Positions 861 through 63,379 of a DNA stretch of 64,000 bases are shown here, piece after piece. The notes beneath the pieces are model-generated. The model was not told where the DNA came from and did no database searches. It worked only from the letters and a program-made list of their open reading frames with translations. The position numbers and the translations under genes are program-made. The first letter of the stretch is position 1, and each line of letters opens with the position of its first letter. The DNA is from Alphaproteobacteria bacterium RIFCSPHIGHO2_01_FULL_41_14 (GTDB lineage: Bacteria; Pseudomonadota; Alphaproteobacteria; UBA7879; UBA5542), in the NCBI GenBank assembly GCA_001767855.1, contig MEMF01000002.1, forward strand, positions 168,893 through 232,892, written 5' to 3'.

Positions 861-862
861 TC

Positions 863-1264: not shown

Positions 1265-2153
1265 ATACCACGGATGGCTTATTGTGAATAAGTCCTATGG
1301 AATTTCTTCTAACACCGCTTTGCAAAAGGTTAGGCATGTTTTTAATAAAACAAAAGCTGGGCACGTGGGGACATTGGATCCGTTGGCTACAGGTGTGCTG
1401 CCGATTGCTTTGGGAGAGGCGACAAAGCTTATTCCTTTTATGGAAAAAACCACTAAAGTATATGACTTTGAGGTCACTTGGGGAGAGCGACGAACCACAG
1501 ATGATTTAGAGGGAGATATCATTGCTGTTTCTGAAAAAAGGCCAATTCGATCAGATATAGAAGCCTCTCTTTCTCGCTTTTTAGGAGAAATCGATCAGAT
1601 TCCCCCTGTGTATTCAGCAGTGAAAGTTCGGGGAAAAGCAGCCTATGCTTATGCGCGACAACACCGAGATGTTTCTCTTAGATCGAGGAAGGTTTTCATC
1701 GAAGAGCTTGTGTTAACCGAGATTGTTTCCGTAGATAAAGCTAGATTTCGCTTGGTTTGTGGAAGTGGTGTGTATGTGAGAAGCTTGGGTCGAGATTTGG
1801 CCATTCTTTTGGGGACAGAGGGGTATATCTCTTCTTTGCATCGTGTGCAAGTCGGGTGTTTCAATGATGCGCAAGCTGTCCCTTTGCAAAAAATACTTGA
1901 AATGCAAGCACATTCTGAGCTACAACGAGTGGTGCATTCTATGGATGTTGTGCTGGACGACATCCTGGTAGTAGTTTTTGAGGAAGAGATTTGTGACCGT
2001 TTTTACAAAGGTCAATCCTTATCTTTTCACCTGTCAACTCTACCAACATCTATAGAAAGCGTCGTTTTGTGCAAAAGTGCTTCTGGCGATCTATGTGGGA
2101 TTCTTTCCTATAAAGATGGCTTGTTGGCGCCGAAGCGCATGTTTAACCTTTAA
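1242..2153 (+). CDS. truB: tRNA pseudouridine(55) synthase TruB
   Basis: Carries TruB motifs ([33 protein letters not shown]). The start is uncertain. The ORF track uses TTG at 1242, overlapping rbfA by 23 nt, and there is no in-frame ATG near the conserved N-terminus. Confidence 0.85.
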
Positions 2154-2169
2154 CGCTAAGGAGATAAAG

Positions 2170-2439
2170 ATGTCGATTATAGAAAAAACAAAGCAAAGCA
2201 TCATCAAAGAGTTTAAAACCTCTGAGAAAGATACAGGGTCACCAGAAGTGCAGGTAGCTCTTTTGACCAACCGAATCAGCTCGCTGAGCGATCATATGAA
2301 AAAGAATCCAAAGGATAAGCACTCCGAAAGAGGATTGCTTATCATGGTAGGACATCGTCGCCGATTATTGGACTACTTACGATCCAACTCAACGGAAAGA
2401 TACAAAACGCTTATTCAGACTCTTGGATTGCGTCGTTAA
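2170..2439 (+). CDS. rpsO: 30S ribosomal protein S15
   Basis: 89 aa with the S15 signature ([35 protein letters not shown]). ATG at 2170 is preceded by AAGGAG at 2158-2163. The longer 2077 ORF in the track is a non-functional upstream extension. Confidence 0.9.
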
Positions 2440-2461
2440 TTTATTTAGGAATTTTAATTAA

Positions 2462-4558: not shown

Positions 4559-4585
4559 TCCTTTAAGGGGAATTGAGGAGGATAT

Positions 4586-5983: not shown

Positions 5984-5984
5984 A

Positions 5985-6455
5985 GTGAAATTCTGGAGTG
6001 GGGTCATTGTTTTATTTCTCATTTTCGTGGGATATGGGCGAGAGGCTCCTCCGGTTCTTTTTTATAATCTTAAACAGGAAGAAACAAATGTACGCTTTGG
6101 TCCTAGCAACCAATTCCCTGTCAAATTTTCCTTAAAGTGTCGACGATTACCTGTCGAAATCAAACAAGCTCATGAGGAATGGTATAAAATCCAAGATTCC
6201 GAGGGAGAAGAGGGTTGGGTTCATAAGAGGATGGTATTTCCAGGGGCGATCGTTTTGGTTACAAAGAAGATCCCTTTAACAAAAGAAAAAAAAACAAGCT
6301 CAGCAGTTCTAGCTCATCTTTCTAAAGGGGTGTTGGTTAAACTAAAAGAGTGTCATAACCAGCTTTGTCGAGTAGAACTTAAGATTGGCAAGAAATCCCT
6401 CACGGGGTGGGTGCCAGAAAAAAATCTTTGGGGAATTAGTGCTCCTCTCCCTTAA
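5985..6455 (+). CDS. secreted protein with two bacterial SH3-like domains
   Basis: GTG start 1 nt after the NMO stop. It has a signal-peptide-like N-terminus followed by two repeats with SH3b-like W...GWV and GWVP motifs. Confidence 0.45.
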   Translation: MKFWSGVIVLFLIFVGYGREAPPVLFYNLKQEETNVRFGPSNQFPVKFSLKCRRLPVEIKQAHEEWYKIQDSEGEEGWVHKRMVFPGAIVLVTKKIPLTKEKKTSSAVLAHLSKGVLVKLKECHNQLCRVELKIGKKSLTGWVPEKNLWGISAPLP

Positions 6456-49535: not shown

Positions 49536-50995
49536 TTATGTTTATGATCCATGAATAAAGTTAGGGTGGAAAGAAAAAGTATACAAAGACAGGGCCAAAA
49601 ACTCAACGCGTACCGTCCGAGGCCGGCTTGGGTGCAGGCGATGGCAATGAACCCGGCTTGGAGTGTTAGGGCGGAAAGGGTTCCAAGAACCAGGGGGTTA
49701 GAAATAGGTTTTTTTCTAAATTTATAGATTAAGGATAAGAGAGGTATCAAGAGGGACAAAATAAAACCAAGGCCTAACATCATTCGAATTCCGTACACAA
49801 TGAACGGATTTCCCAGTTTTTGATTAAATTTGTGGCGCATCTCAGGTTCTTGATAGGTTCCCATGATGGGAAGGGGGGTGTGGGTTTCAAGGTAGGACTT
49901 AAAATCACCATCTTCCTGATAGGTGCAAAGGTCCCCTAATTGCCATAAGGCCCAGTAATTCATCCAAATATCCCCGAGATAAGCTTTGGGAGAGCCTTTA
50001 ATCAAAGATATGGCAGCTTTTTTCCAAAAATCATCTTGTTCACTGGGGGGAAGGCTTGGTGTTTCGGAGCTGACACGCTGACGAATCGTATCATAGTAAG
50101 GACTCGTGAGCAGATATTTTAGGTGTAGAGAGGGTGCTTTATTTAGAACAAGCTGTACGGCAACAGATTCTTTTCTTGTGTTTGGAAAAGGGCTGTTAAG
50201 GACGTCCTCCGTTGGGATGGCGATTAATGCTTTTCCTATAAGGTTATGCCCCAAAAAAGCCTCGGTTTTAAAGAACCCATGTCGGAAAAATTGTGCTGTG
50301 CTGCCCAAGAGCAGAAAAGAAGCAATAACAAAAAATCCTATGATCACTTGTTTAGAGAGTTTTTCTTTTAAGGAAGAGCCTTGAAAGAAGGAAAGGCCAA
50401 GAGGCAAAAGGCATAGAATAATGGACAAAGGGCGTATGAGCGCAGCCATTCCGACGACAAGGCACAGACCATAATAATATTTAGTTTCCTTTGACTGAGA
50501 CGCTTTTATGGTGAGGGCAAGTCCCATCATGAGAAAGGATTGTGCGGGGGAATCTGTCAAAAGGGAGAACGAAAGTTTTGCGAAAGGAATGTTAAACAGC
50601 AGAGCGAAGAGTAGGATGATTGATAAGAGGGAGGATCGCGTCATTTGCAAAAATGAAGCACTCAGAAAGTAGGCAGAAAAACAGAAAAAGAAAATTTGCA
50701 GAGAAGGAATGGGCTCATATGAATGAAAGAGAAAATGGATTCCCTTTAAAAACAGCGGGTATCCGAGAGAGCGTTGCGAAGAAAAATTGATATAACCTAG
50801 GGAATCTGGTTTCAACAGGGATTCGTCACAAAAGAGCCATAGATAAACAAGGCCCAATAAAAAGGAACATATTCCTAAAACAAAACGAAAATCGTTTTTC
50901 TTTTGTAAAGACCAAAAAGCGTGCATCTGTTGATAAAATAGTCTAGTTTTTATTCTTAATAAAAGAACCATGAAAGATTTTCCGAGAAAAAGCAA
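49532..50995 (-). CDS. GT-C fold polyprenyl-phosphate-sugar-dependent glycosyltransferase (ArnT/PMT-like, GT83/GT39)
   Basis: Polytopic (>10 TM), with a DE motif in the first periplasmic loop (LFCDESLL). It overlaps the downstream GT2 gene by 4 nt. Confidence 0.55.
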   Translation of the reverse strand: MLFLGKSFMVLLLRIKTRLFYQQMHAFWSLQKKNDFRFVLGICSFLLGLVYLWLFCDESLLKPDSLGYINFSSQRSLGYPLFLKGIHFLFHSYEPIPSLQIFFFCFSAYFLSASFLQMTRSSLLSIILLFALLFNIPFAKLSFSLLTDSPAQSFLMMGLALTIKASQSKETKYYYGLCLVVGMAALIRPLSIILCLLPLGLSFFQGSSLKEKLSKQVIIGFFVIASFLLLGSTAQFFRHGFFKTEAFLGHNLIGKALIAIPTEDVLNSPFPNTRKESVAVQLVLNKAPSLHLKYLLTSPYYDTIRQRVSSETPSLPPSEQDDFWKKAAISLIKGSPKAYLGDIWMNYWALWQLGDLCTYQEDGDFKSYLETHTPLPIMGTYQEPEMRHKFNQKLGNPFIVYGIRMMLGLGFILSLLIPLLSLIYKFRKKPISNPLVLGTLSALTLQAGFIAIACTQAGLGRYALSFWPCLCILFLSTLTLFMDHKHK

Positions 50996-50996
50996 G

Positions 50997-52010
50997 ATGT
51001 CTTTAATTGTACTGGGTATTGAAACGAGTTGTGATGAAACGGCTGCGGCGGTCGTAACGAAAGAAGGGGCTATTCTTTCTAATATTGTTTTTTCCCAAAT
51101 TAAGGACCATGTTCCTTTCGGGGGTGTTATTCCTGAAGTATCGGCTCGAAATCATCTCTCTGCCCTGCGGCACATTGTTTTAGAAGCCATGAGCCAATCA
51201 GGTATTTCTTTTGATCAGCTGGATGGTGTGGCGGCGACTTGTGGGCCCGGATTGATAGGAGGCGTATTGGTCGGAGCGATGATGGGAAAGTCCATCGCGG
51301 CTTTTCATCAAAAGCCTTTTCTGGCCGTGAATCACCTAGAGGGACATGCATTGACAGCCAGACTAACAGATAAAGTCAAATTTCCTTACCTCTTATTATT
51401 GGTCTCAGGGGGGCACACCCAACTTATCCATGTCCTTGATGTGGGCAACTATAAAGTATTGGGGACGACCTTAGATGATGCGGTGGGAGAGTGTTTTGAT
51501 AAGGTAGCAAAAATGTTAGACTTGCCTTATCCAGGAGGTCCCGCTCTTGAGAAGATCGCTGAAACGGGAAATTCAAAACGGTTTCTTTTTCCGAAACCCT
51601 TGTTCCATACATCTGCCTGTGACTTTTCGTTTTCCGGTTTAAAAACAGCTGTGAGATACGAGATTGAAAAACTCAAACCGATGGATGATGTAACAAAGGC
51701 AGATGTGGCTGCGTCTTTCCAGGCAGCAATTGTTGGGGTATTAGAGAAAAAAGTGACGTTAGCTCTGGAAAAAAACAGTGATTTAAAAACTTTTGTCGTT
51801 GCAGGAGGAGTGGGCGCCAATACATCCATTCGTCTTGCGTTGCAAGGGGTATGTCGTTCACAGGGGATTTCTTTTGTGGCCCCTCCCATTTCTCTCTGTA
51901 CAGATAATGGAGCCATGATTGCTTGGGCAGGGCTCGAGCATCTTCGTAAAGGGGATATCTCTCAACTTGATTTTATGCCCAGGCCCCGGTGGCCCTTGGC
52001 GCCCTCTTGA
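50997..52010 (+). CDS. tsaD: tRNA N6-adenosine threonylcarbamoyltransferase TsaD
   Basis: Begins MSLIVLGIETSCDETAAAVV, with HxxGH (NHLEGHA) and GGVGAN motifs. The start at 50997 avoids overlap with the divergent GT-C gene. Confidence 0.9.
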   Translation: MSLIVLGIETSCDETAAAVVTKEGAILSNIVFSQIKDHVPFGGVIPEVSARNHLSALRHIVLEAMSQSGISFDQLDGVAATCGPGLIGGVLVGAMMGKSIAAFHQKPFLAVNHLEGHALTARLTDKVKFPYLLLLVSGGHTQLIHVLDVGNYKVLGTTLDDAVGECFDKVAKMLDLPYPGGPALEKIAETGNSKRFLFPKPLFHTSACDFSFSGLKTAVRYEIEKLKPMDDVTKADVAASFQAAIVGVLEKKVTLALEKNSDLKTFVVAGGVGANTSIRLALQGVCRSQGISFVAPPISLCTDNGAMIAWAGLEHLRKGDISQLDFMPRPRWPLAPS

Positions 52011-52076
52011 CCTTAGTCGTTGCTCCCCCCTTTTTTTTTGAGTACACTCTTTTAAGAGGAGTTGGCAACAGGGGGT
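51988..52076. repeat. leader repeat copy A (about 90 bp, shared with 53848-53931)
   Basis: Runs ggtggccc..ttgacctta..gctcccccc-T9-GAGTACACTCTTttAAGAGGAGTTGGCAACAGGGGGT-ATG. It contains the palindrome CTCTT..AAGAG and a C6T9 homopolymer junction, and overlaps the last 23 nt of tsaD. Confidence 0.7.
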
Positions 52077-52925
52077 ATGACAAAAGTTTTTCGATTTTTT
52101 CCCAGGTTTTTTGTCCCAATTTTTTTTCTTTCCGTGGTTTTTTCAAACACTAGTTTTCCCACCACGTATCATATCCAAAAGATTAAAGAGAGAGGCTATC
52201 TGATTGTGGCCATGATTGATCAGGATGATTCCCCTTATGCTATGAAAGATCTTAAAGGTCAAGCTGTTGGCATTGATATTGGTTTGGCCAAAGATATTGC
52301 CAAGGATCTCGGGGTAGAATTGCAAATTCTAAGGTCTGCAGCAACCCATGATGAGGTTGTCGAGCAGGTTTTTCAGGGAAAAGCGGACATAGGGATTTCA
52401 GAGTTAAGTATCACCTTAGCGCGGGCAGAAAAGATTAATTACTCTAATCCTTACGTTTTGGTAAAAAAAGCGGTTCTTCTCAATCGTGGGCATTTTTTTC
52501 ATTTAAGGAAAAACGCAGAGGAAAGCCTTCTCTCATTTTTGACAGGTGACCATAAGCTTGGCGTCAGAAAGGGCAGTTCATATGTTGGGTTTGCTAAATT
52601 TCAATTTCCTCAAGCAAAAATCGCGGAATATCCAACCAAAAGAGATTTGATGGATGCATTGGACAAAGGGCTTATTGCTGGGGTTCTTTGGGATGAGTTT
52701 GAGTTAGAAAGTGCGCTGCTGTCACTCAGGGAGGGGCCTCTACGGTATATCGCTGTTGTGATGGATATTCCTCCAGATCAAGTGGCAATGATCTTACCAA
52801 AAGATGATCTGAATTTTTTGCGATGGATAAATGCCTTTTTAGAATTAAATAGAGAAACCCTCTACATAAATGATTTGTTGAAAATGTATTTTACTCACTT
52901 AAAACAAATAAAAGTGGATGTCTAG
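52077..52925 (+). CDS. periplasmic solute-binding protein, SBP_bac_3 family (paralogue 1)
   Basis: Signal peptide followed by RGYLIVAMI..GIDIGLAKDIAKDLGVELQI...VEQVFQGKADIGIS, the type II SBP fold. Preferred start is MTKVF at 52077. Confidence 0.7.
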   Translation: MTKVFRFFPRFFVPIFFLSVVFSNTSFPTTYHIQKIKERGYLIVAMIDQDDSPYAMKDLKGQAVGIDIGLAKDIAKDLGVELQILRSAATHDEVVEQVFQGKADIGISELSITLARAEKINYSNPYVLVKKAVLLNRGHFFHLRKNAEESLLSFLTGDHKLGVRKGSSYVGFAKFQFPQAKIAEYPTKRDLMDALDKGLIAGVLWDEFELESALLSLREGPLRYIAVVMDIPPDQVAMILPKDDLNFLRWINAFLELNRETLYINDLLKMYFTHLKQIKVDV

Positions 52926-53786
52926 ATGACAAAAAATTTTAGATTCTTTTCTCAATTTTTCGTCCTGGTTCTCTTTCTGTTGGGGGGGGTTCCACTTTTC
53001 AGTTTTTCAAAGACACACTCTGTCCAACCCGTTCCGGATTCTATCCAAAAGATTAAAGACAGAGGGTATCTGATCGTCTCCATGATCAGAGAAGACGATC
53101 CCCCTTATGTGATGAAGAACCCTCAAGGACAGATGATCGGTATTGATATCAGTCTAGCGCAGGATATCGCGAAAAACATGGGGGTAGACTTGAAAATCTT
53201 AAGAACGGCGACAACCTATGATGACGTTGTTGAGCAGGTTTTTCAAGGAAAAGCAGACATAGGCATTTCAAATCTCAGCATTACCCTGGGGCGCGCAGAA
53301 AAGGTTAATTATTCAAGTCCTTATGTGTCATTAAAAAAAACAATTCTTCTCAATCGTGGGCATTTTTTTCGCACAAGGCAAAGAGAAAATGATAGCCTCG
53401 AGTCATTTTTTCAAAAAGGTCATAAGCTTGGGGTGATGAAGGGGAGCTCCTATGTGGAATTTTCCAAGATGTATTTCCCAAAGGCGGAAATCGCAGAATA
53501 CCCAACGAAAGAGGATTTGCTCCACGCTCTGGATACCCAACAAATTGCAGGGGTTTTTTGGGATGAATTCGAGATGGAAAAGGTGATTTTCTTAAGCCCA
53601 GGAGGTCCTATACGATATTTTGTCGTTAAGATGAATGTTCCCTCAGATAAATCGGCAATGGTTTTGCCAAAACAAGATCTAGATTTTTTGCAGTGGGTTG
53701 ATACTTTTTTAGAATTGAGCAGAAGAACTTTTAAAATACAGGATGTATTAAACATGTATATGGCCCACTTAAGAGAAAAAAAGTAA
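52926..53786 (+). CDS. periplasmic solute-binding protein, SBP_bac_3 family (paralogue 2)
   Basis: About 65-70% identical to paralogues 1 and 3. Its ATG directly abuts the TAG of paralogue 1. Confidence 0.7.
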   Translation: MTKNFRFFSQFFVLVLFLLGGVPLFSFSKTHSVQPVPDSIQKIKDRGYLIVSMIREDDPPYVMKNPQGQMIGIDISLAQDIAKNMGVDLKILRTATTYDDVVEQVFQGKADIGISNLSITLGRAEKVNYSSPYVSLKKTILLNRGHFFRTRQRENDSLESFFQKGHKLGVMKGSSYVEFSKMYFPKAEIAEYPTKEDLLHALDTQQIAGVFWDEFEMEKVIFLSPGGPIRYFVVKMNVPSDKSAMVLPKQDLDFLQWVDTFLELSRRTFKIQDVLNMYMAHLREKK

Positions 53787-53847
53787 AATCCCAAAGGTCA
53801 GGTTGGTTTTGAGTGGGAACTCGGCCATTATTTGAGAAAGTTGTTCT

Positions 53848-53931
53848 GGCGGCCCTGGTCCTGCTGACCTTAATCATTGCTCCTCCCTTTTTTTTTGAGT
53901 ACACTCTTAAGAGGGATTGGCAACAGGGGAT
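53848..53931. repeat. leader repeat copy B
   Basis: Runs ggcggccc..ctgacctta..gctcctccc-T10-GAGTACACTCTTAAGAGGGATTGGCAACAGGGGAT-ATG. The palindrome CTCTTAAGAG is perfect here. Confidence 0.7.
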
Positions 53932-54768
53932 ATGACAAAAAGTTTTCATTTTTTTTCTAGGTTGTTTATCTTTACGCTTTTTCTTTCCGTGGTTTTTTCA
54001 AACACTAGTTTTCCCACCACGAATTATATTCAAAAGATTAAAGACAGAGGGTATCTCATTGTGGCTATGATTGGGCATGATGCTCCTCCCTATGAGATGA
54101 AGAATTCCCAAGGTCAAGCTATTGGCATTGATGTGAGCTTAGCCAAAGATATCGCCAAGGACCTTGGGGTAGAATTACAAATTCTAAGAACGGCAACAAC
54201 TTATGATGAAGTTGTTGAGCAAGTTTTCCAGGGAAAAGCAGACTTAGGAATATCGAATCTCAGCATTACCTTGGGGCGTGCAGAAAAGGTTAATTATTCA
54301 AGTCCTTATGTGTCGTTAAAAAAAACGGTCCTTCTGAATCGTGCCAATTTTTTTCGCACAAGGCAAAGACAAGATGATAGCCTCGAGTCTTTTTTTCGAA
54401 ATGGTCATAAGCTTGGGGTGATGAAGGGGACTTCCTATGTTGAGTTTGCGAGACTTCAATTTCCCCAGGCAGAAATCGTGGAATATTCAAACGAGGATGA
54501 GTTGATTAAAGCGTTGGCTGTTCGCCAGATTGCGGGGATTTTTTGGGATGAATTTGAGTTGGAGCGAATACTTATTTTGTATAAAGAGGGGCCCATACGA
54601 TATATCGCTGTTGTGATGGATGTTTCTTCAGATAAAGCGGGCATCGCTGTACCAAAAGGAGATCTGAATTTTTTGAGATGGATTAATACTTTTTTACAGC
54701 TAAACAGAAAACCTCTTGAAATATCTGATTTGTTAAAAATACATCTGTCCAATTTGAATAAAAAATAG
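53932..54768 (+). CDS. periplasmic solute-binding protein, SBP_bac_3 family (paralogue 3)
   Basis: The N-terminus (FLSVVFSNTSFPTT) matches paralogue 1. The central part (GRAEKVNYSSPYVSLKKT, FFRTRQR..DSLESFF..GHKLGVMKG) matches paralogue 2, so the gene is mosaic. Confidence 0.7.
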   Translation: MTKSFHFFSRLFIFTLFLSVVFSNTSFPTTNYIQKIKDRGYLIVAMIGHDAPPYEMKNSQGQAIGIDVSLAKDIAKDLGVELQILRTATTYDEVVEQVFQGKADLGISNLSITLGRAEKVNYSSPYVSLKKTVLLNRANFFRTRQRQDDSLESFFRNGHKLGVMKGTSYVEFARLQFPQAEIVEYSNEDELIKALAVRQIAGIFWDEFELERILILYKEGPIRYIAVVMDVSSDKAGIAVPKGDLNFLRWINTFLQLNRKPLEISDLLKIHLSNLNKK

Positions 54769-54777
54769 GAGCTTGAA

Positions 54778-56034
54778 ATGAAATTAACGCAAAATAAGTT
54801 TGTTAATCCTTTAAACATGTTTTTAGCAGTTGTCTTAGGCATCTGTGTGGGTGTGTTTTTCCCTTTTTTGACGCGCAGCGTCGAGGGAGTTAATGGCGTT
54901 CTTTCTAATCTGCTCACCATGTGTGTGATTCCCATTGTAGTTAGTTCGTTGATTGTAGAAATCGGATCCTTTTTGAGATCTACGCAGCGCTCGAGTATGA
55001 AAAAATTTGCTCTCATTAGCGTTGCAGCCGGTTTAGGTCTTTCCCTTTTTTCGGCAGGAATGGGTGTTCTTTTTCAACCAGGAAAGCATATTAGTTTTGA
55101 CAAAAAATCAGATCTTTCCTCAAAAGTTCTTGAAGAGGCCATCATTGAGCGTGCGCCTAACCAGCCTATCGAGACGCTGCGCCAAGAAAACTTTTTCGAT
55201 TTTTTTGAAAAAGCGGTTCCCAAAAATATTTTTGGAGCCTTTACCGATAACAAAACTTTTCAGATTATCTTATTTACCATTATTTTTGCGATTTCTTTGT
55301 CTCACTGCCCTAAAGCACCAGTTTTAGAAAACTTTTTTGAGGCGACGAGGGATGCCTTTCTAAAGATATTCTCCTATGGCCTCTTCTTTCTTCCCGTTCT
55401 AGTGTTTACATCCACCTCTTTATCTATTTCTAAAATAGGATTGTATGTTTTTCTAGATATGCTGCCCTTCTTACAGATTATATTTTTACAATTTGTACTT
55501 GTTTTTTTAGGCAATTTGCTCATCCTCCGGTACAGATTGAAAATCCCTATCCTGTCTATTCTTAAAGATTTACAAAACCCGGCCTTGATTGCCTTTAGTG
55601 GATCAACGCTGGCGGCGACAATTCCGACCCTTTCTTTTTTTAAGAATACCGGGGAAAAGGGTCAGCAATTCATGACCATTGTCACACCGATCGCGATGTT
55701 TTTGAACCAGTATGGAAGCATCATTTATTTTTCTTTTTCTTGTTTTTTCATTGCGCAGGTATATGGACATCCATTCTCTTTTGAGGAGGCCCTTTTTATT
55801 ATTGTTATTTCTGTTGTTGGAGGGATGGCAGTAGGTGCCAATGATGGCATTAGAGGCGTTTTGCTCATTTCTATCTTGGATCCTGTGCACGTATCGGCAG
55901 GACAGCTTGTTTTAATTTTGGCGGGCCTTGATTTCTTGGTGTCGCCGTTTATTTCCATGATAACGGTTCAAACCAATATCACGATTCTTTCCTTTCTTTC
56001 AGAACAGAGGAAAAGAGCTATCTTGACGACTTAA
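54778..56034 (+). CDS. dicarboxylate/amino acid:cation symporter (DAACS / GltP family)
   Basis: 418-aa polytopic protein with a GltP-like N-terminus (MFLAVVLGICVGVFFP) and reentrant-loop-like Ser/Gly-rich segments. Confidence 0.7.
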   Translation: MKLTQNKFVNPLNMFLAVVLGICVGVFFPFLTRSVEGVNGVLSNLLTMCVIPIVVSSLIVEIGSFLRSTQRSSMKKFALISVAAGLGLSLFSAGMGVLFQPGKHISFDKKSDLSSKVLEEAIIERAPNQPIETLRQENFFDFFEKAVPKNIFGAFTDNKTFQIILFTIIFAISLSHCPKAPVLENFFEATRDAFLKIFSYGLFFLPVLVFTSTSLSISKIGLYVFLDMLPFLQIIFLQFVLVFLGNLLILRYRLKIPILSILKDLQNPALIAFSGSTLAATIPTLSFFKNTGEKGQQFMTIVTPIAMFLNQYGSIIYFSFSCFFIAQVYGHPFSFEEALFIIVISVVGGMAVGANDGIRGVLLISILDPVHVSAGQLVLILAGLDFLVSPFISMITVQTNITILSFLSEQRKRAILTT

Positions 56035-57238
56035 AGAGAGTAAACCTATTCTTTCTCGGGATGAAAAAGAATAAACACACGATGCTAAAAATGGCAACAC
56101 AAGCACTGTATTTAAAGGCATAGATGGATCCATAATGCTCCCAGATAACACCTGCTATTTTGCTGGCGATCATGATATCTAAACCCATAACAATGTAGAA
56201 AATACCAAAAGCAGTGCCTCGAATATGTTTTGGAGCATGGTCTGAGACCATGGAGACAAAGATGCTTTGAGTTGTTCCCATCTGAGCGCCCCAGAAAAAA
56301 ACACCTAAATAAATCAATAAAGGAGAAGTCCCATAAATCATGCAGATATTTGCAAGCAACATGAAAGAGAATCCTATTAACAGAATGTTTTGCCTCTGAA
56401 AACGATCAGAGAGGGTACCAATGGGAAAGGCGCTGAGAAATTGACCCATATTAAACATGAGCATGACAAGAGAAATGTACGTAATATTAACACCAGCTTC
56501 GGCCGCTCGGAAAGTTAAGTAAGATTCTCCAAAATGGGACAGCTCATAAACAAAAAGAAGAGCAATAATGCTCCAGTATTCTTTTTTGAGTTCCAAGAGA
56601 GATCGCCAGTGGAATTTCCTTTTATGGTTTGGTTTGTTGAGTTCAATCAACGGGGTTGCTGTGGGCTCTTTAACGCCAAAGATGAAAAGAATTAAGGCAA
56701 TCAAAGCGGGCACAAAGGCACATAAAAACACAAAGCGGATATCATTATTTGTCACCGTCATGATCCAAACAACCAAGGCCGCTCCTATGACGGATCCAGC
56801 TGTCTTTAATGACTTAGATAACCCATAAGAACTGCCTCTTTTGTCTTTGGGAACAAGGTCTCCAATCAAAGCATCTCGAGGGGTTGCTTGCAGTCCGTTC
56901 GTTATGCGATCCAAGGATCTAATGAAAATAACAAGTCCTACAGAAGAGGAGAGTGCAAAAAGAGGTTTCACGAGGGCCGACAATCCATAGCCAAACCCGA
57001 GCACCACTTTTCTATTTTGTAGGATGTCACTAATAGAGCCAGCGACGATGCGCATGGCATAAGAGACAAATTCCACAAAACCATCAATAACACCGACGGT
57101 ATGTTCTGAGACGCCCAGCTCTGTCTTCATAAAGAGGGGCATTTGGCTGAAAACCATAATGGTAGACAAGTTAATGAGAAACCCGGTAAGGCCTAAAATC
57201 CAAATACTGGTAGGAAGTTTAGAAAAAAATTTCTTCAC
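56018..57238 (-). CDS. MFS transporter
   Basis: 12 transmembrane helices in the MFS pattern (G..R..DR..RK after TM2). It overlaps the convergent symporter by 17 nt. Confidence 0.75.
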   Translation of the reverse strand: MKKFFSKLPTSIWILGLTGFLINLSTIMVFSQMPLFMKTELGVSEHTVGVIDGFVEFVSYAMRIVAGSISDILQNRKVVLGFGYGLSALVKPLFALSSSVGLVIFIRSLDRITNGLQATPRDALIGDLVPKDKRGSSYGLSKSLKTAGSVIGAALVVWIMTVTNNDIRFVFLCAFVPALIALILFIFGVKEPTATPLIELNKPNHKRKFHWRSLLELKKEYWSIIALLFVYELSHFGESYLTFRAAEAGVNITYISLVMLMFNMGQFLSAFPIGTLSDRFQRQNILLIGFSFMLLANICMIYGTSPLLIYLGVFFWGAQMGTTQSIFVSMVSDHAPKHIRGTAFGIFYIVMGLDIMIASKIAGVIWEHYGSIYAFKYSACVAIFSIVCLFFFIPRKNRFTLFKSSR

Positions 57239-57276: not shown

Positions 57277-57843
57277 TTAGTCTTCAATCACAACAATGGT
57301 ACGTCCGCGTCCCCTTTTACTGGAGGCAGGCTTCTTTGACTTAGAACTCTGACTCCCTTCGGGAGAAAGATCAGGCACAATACGAGAACGTCCCTTCGAA
57401 CCCATCATCACAAGAACTCTTTGTCCGACGGAAAGCTGAGAATCCTTTCCTTGCACGATGGTCAGGATGCGACCATCTCTGAGCTCTACGGAATATTCAA
57501 TACCATCTTGGGATTTTAATCCCTTTTCTAGTAACGAACCCCCAACTGCACCGGCAGCAGCACCCAGAACGGCCCCAACAACGTGTCCACTTCCATGGCC
57601 TACTTGAGACCCTAGAAGTCCACCCGCGAGTCCTCCGCCCAACAACCCTACTTTGTTGTCTTCCAGGCTATCCCCCCCTTGCACTTTAACGGCGCGGGAA
57701 GAGATAATGACACCCTTGTATGTATGTTTAACAGAACCAACATCATCCTCAGAATATTCATTGGAAGAGATGTTTTTGGCACAGTTGCTTAATAAGAGAA
57801 GAGCAGAGAGACTGAATACAATTAGTTTTTTCATTTTTTCCAT
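57277..57843 (-). CDS. glycine-zipper outer-membrane lipoprotein (SlyB / Rickettsia 17-kDa-antigen-like)
   Basis: Signal peptide with a lipobox-like LLSNC. Gly-zipper segment GLLGGGLAGGLLGSQVGHGSGHVVGAVLGAAAGAVGGSLL. Lys/Arg/Ser-rich C-terminus. Confidence 0.55.
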   Translation of the reverse strand: MEKMKKLIVFSLSALLLLSNCAKNISSNEYSEDDVGSVKHTYKGVIISSRAVKVQGGDSLEDNKVGLLGGGLAGGLLGSQVGHGSGHVVGAVLGAAAGAVGGSLLEKGLKSQDGIEYSVELRDGRILTIVQGKDSQLSVGQRVLVMMGSKGRSRIVPDLSPEGSQSSKSKKPASSKRGRGRTIVVIED

Positions 57844-57949
57844 CGTATATTAAAAAATAATAATCGCATATTTCCATAAATAGTCAATAGTTTCTCGTTG
57901 TAAAAAAAGAAGAAAATATCTTATGATAAAGAAAGCAGGGAAGGTCATA

Positions 57950-59443
57950 ATGATGAAAAAAATATTATTGTGTTTGGTTTGTTGGGGATTTTCTCTAATT
58001 GCAATGGCAAGATATACAGCTTTTGAGTGCAAAAATCTTAACACCTATGTAGGCTACTTGAAAAAAAGCAAGAAAGACATCTTATTAAGTCATCCTAAAT
58101 GTAATGCAGCAGCGTTGAGAACGGCTCTCAAAAATGAGCACACCAAAAAAAAATGGATCAACGAAATTGAGCAGCCCTACCAAGAGTATTTCGGACACCC
58201 TTCTGGGATTTTCCGGGATTGTGAGAATTGTATCTCTAAAGCTCCTTTTTACAGGTTGCCCTCCAAAGAAGAACGGCAGTCCGAGGGCTATGTCCTTGTT
58301 CTTTCTGTTGATGGAGGGGGCGTAAGGGGACTCATTCCCGCAAAAATACTGGAACATATCGAAAAACAGACTGGGGTGAAAGTGTCTGACATTTTTGATG
58401 TATTTGCGGGCACCTCCACGGGAGGATTAATCGCGCTTTATCTAAACATGCCCACAGAAGAGGGTAATGCCAAATATAATGCAACAGAATTGGTAGAAAT
58501 GTACCAGAAGATGTCTTCTAAAATTTTTTCCCATTCTAGTTATGTGCGAAAAATAAGAGGGACTGGAGGATTTTTTACCTCTCGATATTCGGCAAAGCCT
58601 TTTGAGCAACTCCTTAAAAAATATTTCCGGAATGTCACCATGGGCCAAACCGTGAATCCTGTTTTGGTGACATCCGCGAATATAAAATACAGAAAATCTC
58701 TTGAGTTTAGCACCCTCAATCTCCGGCAGCGAAAGGTCTTTTTGTGGGAGGCGGCGCGTGCAACAAGTGCAGCACCCACTTATTTTAAGCCCTATAGTAA
58801 TCTAAATACACAATATTTTTATCCTGATCGATCCAGAGAACGAGAAGTAGATCCTGAAACTGGAGAATTGAAACCTCTCCTGCCGGAAAGAGTCAAACTG
58901 ATTGATGGAGGGGTTGGCGTGAATAGTCCGTCCCAATCAGCCATTGACCTGGCCCGCACAATATATCCCAACAAGAAAATACTCCTTGTATCCCTTGGAA
59001 ATGGCATTTATCGCGGTAAAACCAAGTTCAAAGGATCTGGTGTTTTCGGAGGAGGCGCTTTTACCCTGACAGACCAAGGGCCTAATTTGGCGGGTCTCTC
59101 AGAAGGGATGTTGGATATTCCTTCCGATTATCAGGAAGAGAAAGCAAAAAGGGACCTATTTCATCATGGGGGGACTTATATCCGCATCGAGCCAACGCCA
59201 GAAAAAGACCCAAAATATGACATCCCTTTAGATGACGGATCTCCAAAAGCCATGGAAAAATTAAGCAGAATTTCTGAAAAAATGATTAAGGATAATAAGG
59301 AGTTGAAACGGCTTTTGGTTTTATTACCCTCATATCTTCAGTTGAAAAGAAAAGGAAAAGAGGCCCAGCAGGATCTCTCAGAGAGCCAAAAAACCTTCCG
59401 AGCAAAACAAGCGTTTTTCGAAAAGAGAGCAACGAGGTCATAA
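57950..59443 (+). CDS. secreted patatin-like phospholipase
   Basis: Signal peptide (MMKKILLCLVCWGFSLIAMA). Oxyanion GGGVRG, nucleophile GTSTG and catalytic DGG (LIDGGVG) are all present. Basic C-terminal tail. Confidence 0.8.
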   Translation: MMKKILLCLVCWGFSLIAMARYTAFECKNLNTYVGYLKKSKKDILLSHPKCNAAALRTALKNEHTKKKWINEIEQPYQEYFGHPSGIFRDCENCISKAPFYRLPSKEERQSEGYVLVLSVDGGGVRGLIPAKILEHIEKQTGVKVSDIFDVFAGTSTGGLIALYLNMPTEEGNAKYNATELVEMYQKMSSKIFSHSSYVRKIRGTGGFFTSRYSAKPFEQLLKKYFRNVTMGQTVNPVLVTSANIKYRKSLEFSTLNLRQRKVFLWEAARATSAAPTYFKPYSNLNTQYFYPDRSREREVDPETGELKPLLPERVKLIDGGVGVNSPSQSAIDLARTIYPNKKILLVSLGNGIYRGKTKFKGSGVFGGGAFTLTDQGPNLAGLSEGMLDIPSDYQEEKAKRDLFHHGGTYIRIEPTPEKDPKYDIPLDDGSPKAMEKLSRISEKMIKDNKELKRLLVLLPSYLQLKRKGKEAQQDLSESQKTFRAKQAFFEKRATRS

Positions 59444-59497: not shown

Positions 59498-61642
59498 TTA
59501 AGATCCCCCTGTACGTTGCTGAAGCTCTTCAAATCTTGAGAAGAGCTGTCCTGACATACTCTTCAGGTGCTCATACTGCTGTTCTAGTTCTTGATTTTGT
59601 TGTTCTAATGCCGTTGCCTTTTGCTTTAGATCTTGAAGCTCGGATTCTTTTAATTTTAATGTTTGTTCTTGGTTGCCAAGCTCTCTTTTGAAGGAAGCAA
59701 TCTGGTTTTCTTTGGTAGTTAGTTCTTCTATTGAAAATTCTTCCTGTCCCTGTCTCGTAGTAACTTCGTCTCTTAACTTCTGAAGGTCGTTTGATTGTTG
59801 TCTGACGAATTGCTTTTCCTTTTCTAATTGAGTTCTTAAGTCTTCTATTTCTTTTTCAGCCGCCGATTGCTGTTCTTTAGATTGTGCATCCAACGTTGCT
59901 CTTGATTGGCGAACGACTTCTAACTGGCGTTGGAGATTCGTCAGTTTCGTATCGAAGTCGATATTTTGACTCGTCATTGCTGTAAGCTCTGCATTGGCTG
60001 AAAGTAAAGCGCGTCTTAATTCTTCTACTTTTGGTCCGTCATTTTGAGGGATATTAAGTTGCTGTTGCAAGTTCGAAATAATCTGCTGCTGTTCTTCTAC
60101 TTTCTTCTTCAACGTTTTTCGGCCTTGCAGGTAACCATTTAATCTATGATTCAATTTTATTTGTTGTTGAAGAAGGGTTTCTTGTTTAGAGAGGCGATCT
60201 TTCAGTTCTTTAATTTCCAGGGATAGAGTGGACTCTCTAGCCTTAACAGTCGTTAAAATAGACTTAAATTGGCTTCGTAAAGCCTTCGAGTAATCCTTTT
60301 TACTCTCAGAACGTCCTTTCACATAGCCTCTCACAGCACCCCAGGCAAGCTGTGCACGTCTTTTTTTCATCTCTGCAACACGACGAGATAAGTTTCTGTT
60401 TTCTTCTAAAGTCTGTTGCTCTGCGGCCGTTCTTTTTCGAAGTTCTTCCTCGGCTTCTCCTTTTGCAGTTTCAGCCGCTGATAAAGAAGATTTGAGTGTG
60501 GCCAACTCAGATTGGAGAGCCTCGATTGTTGCCTTATTCCCAGCTTCAAGTTGCTGTAAGGAGTTTTGTAGTTGTATATTAGCCTGCTGCGCTGCTTGAA
60601 GTTCACGAAGTCGGCTTGAAGACCTGCTCATACTGAGATGAGATAACTTTTCCATTCTTTCTAAAAGCTTCGTATTTTTACTTTCTAAGGAACGAATCTT
60701 TGCTTGGTTTTCTCCCAGTGCCTTTTCGAAAATCAACCTGCTCTTGCGTTCTGATTGTGCATCTGTTTGATGGGCAGTAGAGTGACGCTTAAAGATTTCC
60801 ATTTGGGTTTGGAGATAATGCTCCCTTCCTTTTACTTTTCGAAGTTGATTGATTAAGAAGGATTGGGCTGCGGTAAGCTGTTGAATCTGATAATCAACCG
60901 CTTTTAGGGACATCCCCCTTTCCTCTATTTGAGGGGAGTCTGTCAATGGATCTAAGCGAGAGGTGGGGCTTCGTTTAGATTCCCTTTTTGGTAAAATAGA
61001 AGAAGAGGGGGGTAGGGTTTGTTGAGGAGAAGGAATTTCTTCTGGTGGTAAAAAGCTTGCCTTAACAGCAGATCTTCTGAATGGTATTGGGTTTCTCGAT
61101 GAAGGCACCGAGACAGAAGGTTGTTCACGACGCGGGGCATCAGAGAACACACGTCGCCAATTCCCTTCGCCCCACCTTTGTCCTTTATCTTGAGGGTGTC
61201 GCTCATAGGGTATTTGCTCCCATCTTCCTCTTGCAGAACAATACTTTTTAACTTTAGGAAAATTATATCTCTTGTCTATTTTCCTGTTGTCCCAAAGAGT
61301 CTGGCAAGATAGACTCCCGTTTTTTAATTGCAACAGAATTTGATCTTCTGGGGTTTTAGGGTCTATAGAAGAGGAAGGAACAGAAGCGAGAGTAGAAGTA
61401 AGAGGTTGAGAAGAAGTACAATACCGTTGAACATCGGGTAAATCATAGTCGAAAACACCCTCTATAACGCTTGCTCTTCCTCGTTTTTTATCTTCGAAAA
61501 GACCCTGACAAGAAATATCTCCCCGTTTCAAATAAGTAACAAGAAGAGATCCCCGATTTTTCTGAGTGTCCTTAACATCTCCTTGGCAGAGAGAACCAAC
61601 TATTAATATAGAAGACCATATAAATAAGATTTTTTTTGTCAT
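59498..61642 (-). CDS. secreted protein with a duplicated two-cysteine module followed by a >450-aa coiled coil
   Basis: Signal peptide (..VGSLCQG|DVKD). Two modules share L.LK.G..SCQ.L....K...YC.S. Then a Pro/Ser-rich linker, then a heptad-rich Q/E/K/L region running to the C-terminus. Confidence 0.5.
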   Translation of the reverse strand: MTKKILFIWSSILIVGSLCQGDVKDTQKNRGSLLVTYLKRGDISCQGLFEDKKRGRASVIEGVFDYDLPDVQRYCTSSQPLTSTLASVPSSSIDPKTPEDQILLQLKNGSLSCQTLWDNRKIDKRYNFPKVKKYCSARGRWEQIPYERHPQDKGQRWGEGNWRRVFSDAPRREQPSVSVPSSRNPIPFRRSAVKASFLPPEEIPSPQQTLPPSSSILPKRESKRSPTSRLDPLTDSPQIEERGMSLKAVDYQIQQLTAAQSFLINQLRKVKGREHYLQTQMEIFKRHSTAHQTDAQSERKSRLIFEKALGENQAKIRSLESKNTKLLERMEKLSHLSMSRSSSRLRELQAAQQANIQLQNSLQQLEAGNKATIEALQSELATLKSSLSAAETAKGEAEEELRKRTAAEQQTLEENRNLSRRVAEMKKRRAQLAWGAVRGYVKGRSESKKDYSKALRSQFKSILTTVKARESTLSLEIKELKDRLSKQETLLQQQIKLNHRLNGYLQGRKTLKKKVEEQQQIISNLQQQLNIPQNDGPKVEELRRALLSANAELTAMTSQNIDFDTKLTNLQRQLEVVRQSRATLDAQSKEQQSAAEKEIEDLRTQLEKEKQFVRQQSNDLQKLRDEVTTRQGQEEFSIEELTTKENQIASFKRELGNQEQTLKLKESELQDLKQKATALEQQNQELEQQYEHLKSMSGQLFSRFEELQQRTGGS

Positions 61643-61706: not shown

Positions 61707-62015
61707 TTAATTTATGCGTGCGTTCAGTTTGGTGGCGATCGAGCAAAGAGATGTCTCTGGCTGATGTGCAGTCGCATATAAAATCCGTTTTACACCCTGA
61801 TAGAGACAACGGAGACCTTGTCCTGGGGTTGCACATTCAACCGTCAAAGAGGTGTGGGGATAGAAGGCCAACTGGTCTTGATAGGCTTTGACAATGCCTG
61901 CACCCAATACAGATAGGGTAGAACTCGAGATAAAAAACTGAATGGGGTCTGAAGTTGTGAGGTAGGGCACCATTTCTTCCCAACAGGTGACAATAACCTT
62001 CTTATCCGCAGACAT
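61707..62015 (-). CDS. hypothetical 102-aa protein translationally coupled to dnaA
   Basis: Its ATG shares one nucleotide with the dnaA TGA (TGATG). It has no recognisable motif, and a competing + strand ORF (61679-61891) overlaps it. Confidence 0.3.
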   Translation of the reverse strand: MSADKKVIVTCWEEMVPYLTTSDPIQFFISSSTLSVLGAGIVKAYQDQLAFYPHTSLTVECATPGQGLRCLYQGVKRILYATAHQPETSLCSIATKLNARIN

Positions 62016-63379
62016 CAATGCCCCAGCATCTTTTCAAGAAGTGCCACATCATCCCGTAAGGTGGGATCATTTTCTTGGAGAGATTTGATGGCCTTCACTG
62101 CGTGCATCACGGTGGTATGGTCTCGTCCCCCAAACTTGCGTCCAATCTCGGGTAAAGATCGAGACGTCAATTGTTTTGATAGATACATAGCGACCTGACG
62201 AGGACGGGCGACGATCCGGGAGCGCTTGCTAGAATGCATATCGCTGACTCGGATATTATAGTGTTCAGCCACATGACGTTGGATTTCCTCTACCGTCACA
62301 TATTTTTCATTGGCTCGCAAAAGGTCTTTTAAAAGTTCTTGCGTTTTGTCTAAGGAAATATCGCTGCCTACAAGGGTGGCATGGGCCGTAATGCGATTTA
62401 AAGCACCTTCCAGCTCACGGATATTTGAAGTGATTTTATGAGCTAGAAACTCTAAAATTTCTGCGGGCATAGGAAGAGGCAAATTTTCAGCCTTGGATTG
62501 AAGGATGCCCAATCGAAGTTCGTAGGTGCTCGGGTGAATGTCTGCTACGAGCCCCCATCCTAACCGAGACCGCATCCGCTCTTCAATCCCCTGCATTTCG
62601 GAAGGAGATTTATCAGCAGAGAGGATAATTTGTCGTTTCTGATCCACAAGAGAGTTAAAAGTGTGGAAAAATTCTTCTTGGGTAGAGTCCTTACCGCTAA
62701 TAAACTGAACGTCATCAATCATTAAAATATCAACAGATCGAAGTTGTTCTCTAAAATTGATCATGGTTTTGTGTCTTAGGGCTCGAATGAACTGGTACAT
62801 AAACTTTTCAGCCGACATGTAAATGACGCGTCGGTTGGGCTGTGTTTTATGGAGCTTCCAGGCAACGGCATGCATTAAATGGGTTTTTCCAAGTCCGACA
62901 CCCCCATACAAAAAAAGAGGGTTGAAATAGACTTTGTCTGATTCCGCAACACGCTGAGCGGCGGCGTACGCAAGCTCATTGGGTTTGCCAACGACGAAAT
63001 TTTCAAATGTAAAGCGGGGGTCCAAGCCAGCGGTTGAGTTCTTTAAGAGATAGTTATCAAGCGCTTCCGGAGCAGATTCTTCTTCAGGGGCGACAAAGGC
63101 ATTGTTTTTAGGGGTGGATGCAGGCTTCTCTGATTCTTTTGCGATCACCTCGATGGTTTGGATACTGCCATCTTCTTTTTGCCACAGGGCTAAGATTTGA
63201 TTTAAATAACGGTTCGTAATCCAGTCTCGAATGAAAGGGGAAGGGACAGAAAGCAAGATACGGCTTCCCATATCTTCCTCAAATTCCAGAAACTTAAGCC
63301 AGCCTTTGTAAGTGGTCTGCCCAAAGACATCAGGCAACAATGATTGAACCCGATTCCAAATTTGTATTTTTTCAGTCAC
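62015..63379 (-). CDS. dnaA: chromosomal replication initiator protein DnaA
   Basis: GTG start. AAA+ Walker A GGVGLGKTHL, Walker B, sensor, and a C-terminal DnaA-box-binding HTH (the LTS.SLPEIG..FGGRDHTTV signature). Confidence 0.95.
   Translation of the reverse strand: MTEKIQIWNRVQSLLPDVFGQTTYKGWLKFLEFEEDMGSRILLSVPSPFIRDWITNRYLNQILALWQKEDGSIQTIEVIAKESEKPASTPKNNAFVAPEEESAPEALDNYLLKNSTAGLDPRFTFENFVVGKPNELAYAAAQRVAESDKVYFNPLFLYGGVGLGKTHLMHAVAWKLHKTQPNRRVIYMSAEKFMYQFIRALRHKTMINFREQLRSVDILMIDDVQFISGKDSTQEEFFHTFNSLVDQKRQIILSADKSPSEMQGIEERMRSRLGWGLVADIHPSTYELRLGILQSKAENLPLPMPAEILEFLAHKITSNIRELEGALNRITAHATLVGSDISLDKTQELLKDLLRANEKYVTVEEIQRHVAEHYNIRVSDMHSSKRSRIVARPRQVAMYLSKQLTSRSLPEIGRKFGGRDHTTVMHAVKAIKSLQENDPTLRDDVALLEKMLGH

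Follow-up and report, generated by a model that had tools for sequence, protein, structure and literature searches.

Until recently, only TRAP and TTT carriers were known among secondary transporters to use a soluble solute-binding protein (SBP); Jaques et al. (2025) then proposed TAXI-GltS of Bordetella pertussis as a further SBP-dependent secondary class on the basis of gene linkage, translational coupling and fusions, suggested that an elevator mechanism may be a prerequisite for SBP recruitment, and called for further classes (PMC12344293). Here, we analysed a stretch of 64,000 nucleotides (hereafter the window) of contig MEMF01000002.1 from Alphaproteobacteria bacterium RIFCSPHIGHO2_01_FULL_41_14 (GCA_001767855.1), in which three tandem genes for family-3 SBPs (Pfam SBP_bac_3) precede a gene for a carrier of the DAACS family (Pfam SDF). 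The host lineage is represented by alphaproteobacterial metagenome-assembled genomes (MAGs) from groundwater. Among elevator families, DAACS/GltPh is the best understood; its human counterparts are the SLC1 glutamate transporters. An earlier note on this DNA had considered SBP-dependent secondary transport to be known only for TRAP and TTT, a view made outdated by the TAXI-GltS proposal of 2025 (PMC12344293), and had suggested an SBP-assisted DAACS system. We report that this suggestion is strongly supported by near-obligate adjacency in both search directions, co-divergence, frequent gene overlaps and two fusions, and that the locus is best read as a species-specific triplication of the SBP half of a conserved module, i.e. 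an SBP_bac_3 gene with a downstream gene for a divergent DAACS/SDF carrier.

The order of the locus, established from a listing of open reading frames (ORFs), reading of the sequence and Pfam searches, is tsaD, SBP1, SBP2, SBP3 and the SDF/DAACS gene, followed by a convergent MFS gene:

50970-52010, plus strand: tsaD (Pfam PF00814, E 5.7e-92), the upstream neighbour, whose last seven codons form the start of leader copy A
52077-52925, plus strand: SBP1, a secreted family-3 SBP of 282 aa from the SDF-partnered clade (PF00497 SBP_bac_3, E 1e-20), with the clade signature residues and the alpha-amino-acid-binding motif
52926-53786, plus strand: SBP2, a paralogue of 286 aa (PF00497, E 6.6e-21), with no spacer after SBP1
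53932-54768, plus strand: SBP3, a mosaic paralogue of 278 aa (PF00497, E 4.4e-22)
54778-56034, plus strand: divergent SDF/DAACS carrier of 418 aa with a predicted GltPh fold (PF00375, E 6.4e-42), the conserved partner of the SBP
56018-57238, minus strand: MFS transporter (PF07690), convergent with the SDF gene

The automatic ORF call started SBP1 at TTG 52062; the ATG at 52077 was taken since the paralogues align from ATG/MTK. The three SBPs score 74-79 bits against PF00497 (gathering cut-off 26.4) and the carrier 144 bits against PF00375 (cut-off 27.9); NCBIfam holds no dedicated model for either protein, every match lying far under its cut-off. As read from the sequence, the SBP N-termini are basic then hydrophobic, i.e. 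signal-peptide-like, and have no lipobox cysteine. The TAG stop of SBP1 is followed directly by the ATG of SBP2, and 9 nt separate SBP3 from the carrier gene. The succession of three tandem SBP genes and a DAACS gene, the abutment of SBP2 on SBP1 and the closeness of the symporter gene to SBP3 had all been described in the earlier note and are confirmed; its figure of 65-75% identity among the paralogues holds for nucleotides (68.6-74.8% pairwise) and not for proteins (59-65%).

No ABC (ATP-binding cassette) permease or ATPase was found, as the note had stated: no ORF of at least 100 aa in the window combines Walker A with the LSGGQ signature, and Pfam calls on identical contigs gave no ABC component, hence no flanking permease/ATPase pair, within 10 kb either side of the locus. 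The Pfam hits of the locus were SBP_bac_3 and SDF only, with none of the TRAP (DctP/TAXI SBP, DctQ, DctM) or TTT (TctC/Bug SBP, TctA, TctB) components among them.

Conserved pairing of family-3 binding proteins with SDF carriers

The association of the two genes was assessed in both directions. In the forward test, a profile of 20 SBPs was searched against one genome per species, giving 79 loci ranked by similarity, whose neighbouring ORFs were called and searched with an SDF set and with Walker A and signature motifs. Within the top 54 loci, an SDF gene adjoins the SBP gene in 52 of the 53 that were testable, lying downstream on the same strand in 51 and upstream in one (L051). Locus L034, whose contig ends 157 bp after the SBP gene, was left out of this count; L059, where the contig end leaves only part of the SDF gene visible, was counted as paired; and in L023 the SBP is an additional, unpaired copy, a paired one being present on the same contig. 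Adjacency falls off sharply between these loci and the 25 weaker SBP matches (L066-L090, 23-39% identity over the best aligned segment), none of which has an SDF neighbour and 11 of which have an ABC ATPase of 240-266 aa beside the SBP. A small ABC ATPase of the polar-amino-acid type adjoins none of the paired genome loci; in L022, a 296-aa ATPase-like ORF lies about 4 kb from the pair on the opposite strand.

For the reverse test, the 20-sequence SDF alignment was too divergent as a metagenome seed, and a smaller profile of ten partner SDFs was used instead against metagenome contigs. It returned 78 loci, 64 of them with at least 700 bp upstream of the SDF gene. An SBP gene lies immediately upstream in 62 of these 64, and a truncated SBP is visible at the contig edge in 6 of the 14 loci with a shorter upstream region. 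A single-protein SDF query against genome contigs confirmed no relative.

Paired loci were found in Cyanobacteria, Thermodesulfobacteriota, Syntrophales, Comamonadaceae, Rhodocyclaceae, Methylococcaceae and Alphaproteobacteria including Caedibacter, as well as in Spirochaetia, Acidobacteriota, Entotheonellaceae, Victivallales, Lachnospiraceae and Planctomycetota, and the wider gene neighbourhoods are unrelated; in all, more than ten bacterial phyla are represented. The adjacency on which the earlier note had made its suggestion depend is thus conserved in relatives. Close relatives have tsaD, a single SBP gene and the SDF gene, often with start/stop overlap: both GCA_041443065.1 (SBP 56% identical, SBP/SDF overlap of 4 nt) and L091 (overlap of 23 nt) carry one SBP and keep the synteny from tsaD to dnaA. 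In at least eight genome loci, start and stop overlap by 1-7 nt. SBP homologues at a greater distance (35-40% identical, including those of Thermodesulfobacteriota and Desulfohalobiaceae MAGs) stand in other contexts, again with an SDF gene downstream, whose product is 24-33% identical to the window SDF. The triplication of the SBP is therefore species-specific and the SBP-SDF pair is not. The MFS gene keeps its place only in close relatives (L091 and GCA_041443065.1); distant SBP-SDF loci lack it, and it does not belong to the conserved module.

The two proteins also diverge together: over 47 pairs, distances among SBPs and among SDFs are correlated (r = 0.92), a value reached in 0 of 999 Mantel permutations. 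Joint inheritance of the pair would produce such co-divergence, to which shared phylogeny also contributes.

In an exhaustive SBP profile search of 1.84 billion cluster representatives, two long proteins among the top 150 matches proved to be SBP-SDF fusions, P0185 (728 aa) and P0230 (812 aa), both ordered as signal peptide, N-terminal SBP_bac_3 domain, one extra hydrophobic helix and C-terminal SDF domain. The extra helix lies between the SBP and the first SDF helix, is followed by basic residues, and is what is needed for joining a periplasmic domain to a carrier with a cytoplasmic N-terminus, which argues against a gene-calling artefact. The two proteins belong to different SBP subclades and are two independent natural fusions. 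Co-location across distant taxa and fusions with coherent topology, i.e. two features expected of an SBP-dependent secondary transporter, are thus both found. The same search brought up giant proteins with 5-8 tandem SBP_bac_3 domains (P0104, of 2009 aa, P0110, P0115, P0192, P0208, P0223 and P0236); the two examined further, P0104 and P0192, also bear an ABC permease domain (BPD_transp_1), and the giant proteins are extreme forms of the ordinary GlnP-type architecture.

Variations on the pair were also recorded. Extra SBP copies or tandem pairs arise independently in L113, L123, L140, L149, L151/L152 and L160. Two SDFs around one SBP, or two full SBP-SDF pairs in tandem, occur in L012 (6738-9496), L056 (3793-7837), L058 (2215-6224), L123 and L140; therefore, either partner duplicates, depending on the lineage. 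In three MAGs of Thermodesulfobacteriota, Desulfohalobiaceae and Desulfovermiculus (L010, L011 and L017), two C39-peptidase/ABC exporter genes precede the pair (neighbouring regions at 1-5991 and 8237-11406 in L010 and at 1-5994 and 8264-10797 in L011; in L017, exporter ORFs upstream of the SBP only). L010 and L011 further have a Peripla_BP_6 gene before the pair and genes for an ECF sigma factor and Nif11-type peptides after it, a neighbourhood resembling those of ribosomally synthesised and post-translationally modified peptides.

Residues, fold and accessory genes of the two partners

The best solved-structure matches of the SBP profile are AncCDT-1 (5t0w), 4i62, LAO, HisJ and GlnH. Residues S108, S111, T113, R116, G166, S168 and D206 are invariant or nearly so and align with AncCDT-1 and LAO-type SBPs, and the binding motifs S-x-x-S-I-T-x-x-R (lobe 1), G-T/S-S (hinge) and D-E (with its Asp in lobe 2) are kept. 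By homology with LAO and HisJ numbering, we take S108/S111/T113/R116, the hinge and D206 to be the residues that hold the alpha-carboxylate and alpha-amino groups; judged by these alignments, the SBPs retain alpha-amino-acid-binding residues. Nine residues (R86, S108, N136, R137, G162, F177, E207, E209 and D234) mark the SDF-partnered SBPs, being conserved in 85% or more of them and rare in ABC-type neighbours; all nine are present in SBP1, SBP2 and SBP3.

Several cyanobacterial SBPs carry an N-terminal PG_binding_1 domain (L045 5644-6741, L035 5269-6753, L016 3484-4896, L015 1470-2681, L027 5626-6735, L052 5542-6792 and L053 103-1353), and P0131 has an OmpA domain in its place; in some lineages, the SBP is therefore tethered to the cell wall. 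The SBP of a Lachnospiraceae member has a lipobox-like N-terminus.

An AlphaFold2 model of the window SDF aligned over its full length (about 415 columns, Foldseek) with inward-facing GltPh at a TM-score of 0.77, so that the carrier is predicted to keep the GltPh elevator fold, including the HP1/HP2 architecture. Its site residues are altered. The NMDGT motif reads LNQYGS in the window SDF and L-C-R-F-G-S/T in most of the clade, the equivalent of GltPh D312 being lost throughout. In transmembrane helix 8, the D390 equivalent is kept; that of D394 is S in the window SDF, with D kept in most clade members; that of R397 is I, with L or R elsewhere in the clade; and the equivalents of N401 and D405 are T and N. 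The window SDF thus has neither the Na+-site residues of Na+-coupled DAACS members (NMDGT, N401/D405) nor the substrate-binding D394 and R397 of acidic-amino-acid carriers, and canonical three-Na+ coupling appears to be gone from it.

Neighbour clustering over 56 paired loci revealed only two recurrent families besides the pair, i.e. an Asp_Glu_race racemase and a dCache_1-HAMP sensor; no third conserved membrane gene or small accessory membrane subunit accompanies the pair in these loci. A racemase gene was found in 22 loci; in cyanobacteria it directly precedes the SBP gene, and in several alphaproteobacteria it lies downstream in convergent orientation. Examples of these Asp/Glu-type racemase genes are:

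L025, 8248-9039, minus strand: alphaproteobacterial racemase
L038, 8151-8906, minus strand: alphaproteobacterial racemase
L045, 4844-5647: cyanobacterial racemase
L021, 5026-5841: racemase

Of four racemases scored, the two alphaproteobacterial ones, from L025 and L038, pass the cut-off of the NCBIfam equivalog for cysteate racemase CuyB (267 and 261 bits vs 190), and two cyanobacterial ones fall just under it. In the cuy cluster of Bilophila wadsworthia, CuyB is found alongside an SDF carrier for which import of L-cysteate has been proposed (PMC11193023). Together, these data point to acidic or sulfonated alpha-amino acids as likely ligands for at least part of the clade.

The gene for the dCache_1-HAMP protein is present in 20 of the 56 loci, its output domain being an adenylate/guanylate cyclase, a SpoIIE phosphatase or nothing, and its start codon often lies no more than a few bases from the SDF stop (L064, L054, L037 of Caedibacter, L033, L024 and L036). 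Representative genes are:

L064, 8021-10060: dCache_1-HAMP gene
L054, 8198-10318: dCache_1-HAMP gene
L037, 8110-10017: dCache_1-HAMP gene
L033, 8358-10682: dCache_1-HAMP gene
L025, 8970-11198, minus strand: dCache_1-HAMP gene
L045, 8111-9637, minus strand: dCache_1-HAMP gene

Neither racemase nor sensor is found in the window locus. Eight loci, most of them cyanobacterial, carry a VgrG-like gene (Phage_GPD, Gp5) that precedes the racemase-SBP-SDF group by a few kb, and a small ORF family recurs beside it (e.g. L012 5007-5396):

L012, 2221-4236: VgrG-like gene
L021, 2314-4323: VgrG-like gene
L027, 1917-3926: VgrG-like gene
L041, 2088-4097: VgrG-like gene
L045, 2349-4358: VgrG-like gene

Triplication and mosaic structure of the binding-protein genes

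The three SBP genes were aligned by codons and compared in sliding windows, and the features that bear on their origin are as follows:

51988-52076, plus strand: leader repeat copy A, made of the tsaD tail, C6T9, GAGTACACTCTTTTAAGAGG, GGCAACAGGGGG and ATG
53848-53931, plus strand: leader repeat copy B, in which the tsaD 3' tail recurs in degenerate form
53204-53444, plus strand: SBP2 partner stretch of the conversion tract, 89.6% identical to SBP3
54189-54429, plus strand: gene-conversion tract in SBP3, spanning the S-x-x-S-I-T-x-x-R ligand-binding motif (lobe 1) and the hinge

Over its first 270 nt or so, SBP3 is up to 93% identical to SBP1, where SBP2 reaches 40-70%. At alignment nt 279-519, SBP3 is 89.6% identical to SBP2 vs 72.6% to SBP1, and the identity between SBP2 and SBP3 is 89.6% inside this tract vs 66% in its flanks; the 3' third of SBP3 is closer to neither paralogue. 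Among informative sites, 49 inside the tract agree with SBP2 and 8 with SBP1, against 57 and 112, respectively, outside it, and the observed maximum chi-square was reached in 0 of 300 permutations. SBP3 is a mosaic of an SBP1-like 5' part and an SBP2-like centre, and the gene-conversion-like pattern noticed earlier is upheld with its breakpoints mapped.

The shared leader before SBP1 and SBP3 was likewise recovered, 74 of 84 aligned bases being identical in a local alignment, with T9 in both copies, and copy A does overlap the 3' end of tsaD, beginning in its last seven codons. The similarity runs unbroken into the coding region (105 of 124 identical). The motif GAGTACACTC..AAGAGG has only the two leader sites in the window, and 0 of 100 shuffles gave two matches. 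Rather than being an independently conserved element, copy B belongs to a single duplicated segment that begins in the tsaD tail, crosses the spacer and extends into the SBP 5' part. The triplication arose through duplication of this segment of tsaD tail, leader and SBP 5' part, followed by a conversion that rendered the SBP3 centre SBP2-like.

The leader had also been suggested to act as an operator or slippage-prone promoter, an idea that found no support: besides belonging to the duplicated segment, it is not present in the tsaD-SBP spacer of the relative L091 (SDF 58% identical), it has no credible match in Rfam, and its folding was no better than z of about -2 in the 86-nt leaders, against about 0 when only the palindrome was folded. 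A sigma-70 promoter was considered and rejected, the leader lying under the promoter-scan threshold; a manual candidate, TTGCTC-N17-TACACT, agrees at 7 of 12 consensus positions. Nor was slippage of the T tract observed. Assemblies L001, L002, L003, L005 and L007 match the locus at 100%, both T9 tracts being unchanged, and L006 has one unplaced mismatch within the 6.3-kb region; several of these assemblies share one aquifer project, which makes for a narrow sample.

In metagenome run SRR3989344, protein P0002 is an exact chimera of the SBP2 N-terminus and the SBP3 C-terminus, and in P0001, a variant of SBP3, a patch of four residues is that of SBP2. P0001, P0002 and P0003 all come from this run and are single observations. 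P0001 and P0002 could reflect unequal crossover and conversion in the population or could be assembly chimeras, a weak hint of continuing recombination.

The surroundings of the locus were also recorded. The MFS gene is followed by a gene for a Rick_17kDa_Anti-like glycine-zipper lipoprotein (57277-57843, minus strand), and beyond it lie genes for a patatin-like phospholipase (57923-59443, plus strand) and a 714-aa coiled-coil protein (59498-61642, minus strand); proteins of these three kinds are commonly met in host-associated alphaproteobacteria. dnaA (62015-63379, minus strand), about 6 kb downstream of the locus, and then the gene for ribosomal protein S20 come next, the block from tsaD to dnaA being syntenic in relatives. 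A bufferin-type cluster (BufA1, MbnB/TglH/ChrH, HvfC_N; L001 17238-21257) lies just past the right end of the window. In L005, from the same organism, about 200 extra bases at about 5760-5961 (corresponding to about 56600 in the window) split the MFS gene into two ORFs, probably through an assembly duplication.

Proposed uptake, competing explanations and known systems

We favour SBP-dependent uptake through the SDF carrier, with a probability of about 0.65. Each periplasmic SBP would capture an alpha-amino acid and dock on the SDF carrier, which would move the ligand over the inner membrane without ATP, as in TRAP, TTT and the proposed TAXI-GltS. The ligand would probably be acidic or sulfonated, of the aspartate, glutamate or cysteate type, and three SBPs on one carrier could widen or tune the ligand range; HisJ and LAO provide a precedent for several SBPs serving one membrane unit. 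With the canonical Na+-site residues lost, the carrier probably depends on H+ or on a non-canonical coupling, or has its coupling imposed by the SBP. A bolder version, which we hold to be doubtful, is that SBP_bac_3-DAACS forms a new, obligately SBP-dependent elevator class beside TRAP, TTT and the proposed TAXI-GltS, in which the carrier would have given up Na+ coupling and its high-affinity site, the SBP would set specificity and directionality, and the pair would also provide ligand input to dCache-HAMP cyclases or phosphatases, as a transceptor, in about one third of lineages.

Some points weigh against SBP-dependent uptake. The absence of ABC genes applies at the level of the locus, i.e. 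to the 64-kb window and to 10 kb on each side of the locus. The AlphaFold2 model is of moderate confidence (pLDDT 68, pTM 0.68). Without the NMDGT aspartate, D394 and R397, the SDF may be something other than a conventional symporter, or may be unable to bind an amino acid on its own. The coupled dCache-HAMP sensor in 20 of the 56 loci leaves room for a signalling or transceptor role, and the substrate hint is indirect because both racemase and sensor are missing at the window locus. Finally, our literature search found no description of an SBP_bac_3-DAACS system, with subscription journals thinly covered, such that an earlier account is possible.

The main rival is a primarily sensory role, in which the pair would be mainly a ligand sensor (co-sensor or transceptor) feeding a membrane signalling protein, with transport secondary or absent. 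The frequent and often translationally coupled dCache_1-HAMP gene and the loss of canonical ion- and substrate-site residues from the SDF speak for it, and DctA and DctB, co-sensors of the DctS kinase in Bacillus subtilis, offer a precedent. We nevertheless regard it as unlikely: most loci, the window and its close relatives lack the sensor, only the SBP-SDF pair is invariant, the elevator fold is predicted to be kept in full, and a metabolic racemase is about as frequent beside the pair as the sensor. The racemases, being cytoplasmic, would also suit a carrier that exports a product (e.g. a D-amino acid or sulfonate) to be received or regulated by the SBP, as would the peptidoglycan-binding domain at the N-terminus of cyanobacterial SBPs and the loss of the usual inward-driving Na+ sites. 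This is less probable still, since to our knowledge every characterised SBP-dependent transporter (ABC importers, TRAP, TTT) is an importer, the SBPs appear to keep a complete amino-acid-capturing site, and the published CuyB-SDF cluster is catabolic, with import proposed (PMC11193023).

Two further explanations dissociate the SBPs from transport by the SDF. Family-3 SBPs normally serve ABC importers, and the homologues are annotated accordingly in the sources, so that SBP1-3 could be orphan receptors of a polar-amino-acid ABC importer encoded elsewhere, the SDF being an unrelated neighbour. This explanation is strongly disfavoured by the adjacency in 52 of 53 and 62 of 64 loci from many phyla and unrelated contexts, by the fusions and the co-divergence, and by the small ABC ATPase, which is beside no paired locus but beside the next-most-similar SBPs. 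Least probable of all, and quite improbable in our view, is that the SBPs are variable surface or periplasmic antigens whose expression is switched by C6T9 slippage and whose copy number is varied by recombination. The T9 run in each leader, the mosaic in SBP3 and the chimera and SBP2-like variant from SRR3989344 could be read in this way, and the earlier note had raised it; no positive evidence emerged. The homopolymer shows no length variation of the kind expected of a phase-variable contingency locus (T9 constant in L001, L002, L003, L005 and L007), the whole locus is unchanged across mismatch-free covering assemblies, the leader belongs to the duplicated segment, the chimera and variant are single observations from one run that may be assembly chimeras, and free-living bacteria conserve the clade as the partner of a transporter.

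If SBP-dependent uptake through the SDF holds, a widespread family-3 SBP partner for DAACS would provide a direct test of the elevator-prerequisite proposal and a tractable system for studying how a soluble receptor couples to an elevator; in the host species, the receptor half of such a system would be diversifying through tandem duplication and gene conversion. Hundreds of "ABC transporter substrate-binding protein" annotations would need renaming, 890 cluster representatives, not all of them of this clade, matching the SBP profile at E <= 1e-30.

Among known systems, canonical DAACS members (GltPh, GltP, DctA, SstT, TcyP) share the Pfam family, the full-length fold and HP1/HP2 with the window SDF as modelled; unlike it, they work without an SBP, and the window SDF has altered NMDGT, D394, R397 and D405 positions. 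The cuy cluster of B. wadsworthia (SDF, CuyB, CuyA) resembles the paired loci in linking an SDF to a CuyB-type racemase, but no SBP is mentioned there (PMC11193023), and the window locus has no racemase or lyase gene. Polar-amino-acid ABC importers (HisJ/LAO-HisQMP, GlnH-GlnPQ, ArtJ) have in common with the pair the SBP fold, PF00497 and the alpha-amino-acid-binding residues; they differ in that a BPD_transp_1 permease or ATPase is beside none of about 115 SBP-SDF loci, and the SDF-partnered SBPs bear clade-specific residues rare in their ABC-type neighbours.

TRAP systems (DctP or TAXI SBP with DctQM) offer, by analogy, a one-operon arrangement for SBP-dependent, ATP-independent uptake through an elevator-type membrane component, whereas our locus has no DctP/TAXI, DctQ or DctM, the predicted fold is GltPh-like and not DASS-like, and there is no conserved small membrane subunit. 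With TAXI-GltS, the pair shares an SBP gene that is linked and translationally coupled to the gene of an elevator-type amino-acid carrier, of a kind that usually functions unaided; natural fusions of SBP and carrier, though rare, are found in both, and the same three lines of evidence apply. TAXI-GltS, however, combines a TAXI (TRAP-family) SBP with GltS (ESS) and had its ligand binding measured, in contrast to the family-3 SBP and DAACS/SDF (SLC1/GltPh) carrier described here. The SBP_bac_3-SDF pair is not a member of TRAP, TTT or TAXI-GltS, because both the SBP and the carrier families differ, and it is probably an undescribed type of SBP-dependent transporter that operates without an ABC pump.

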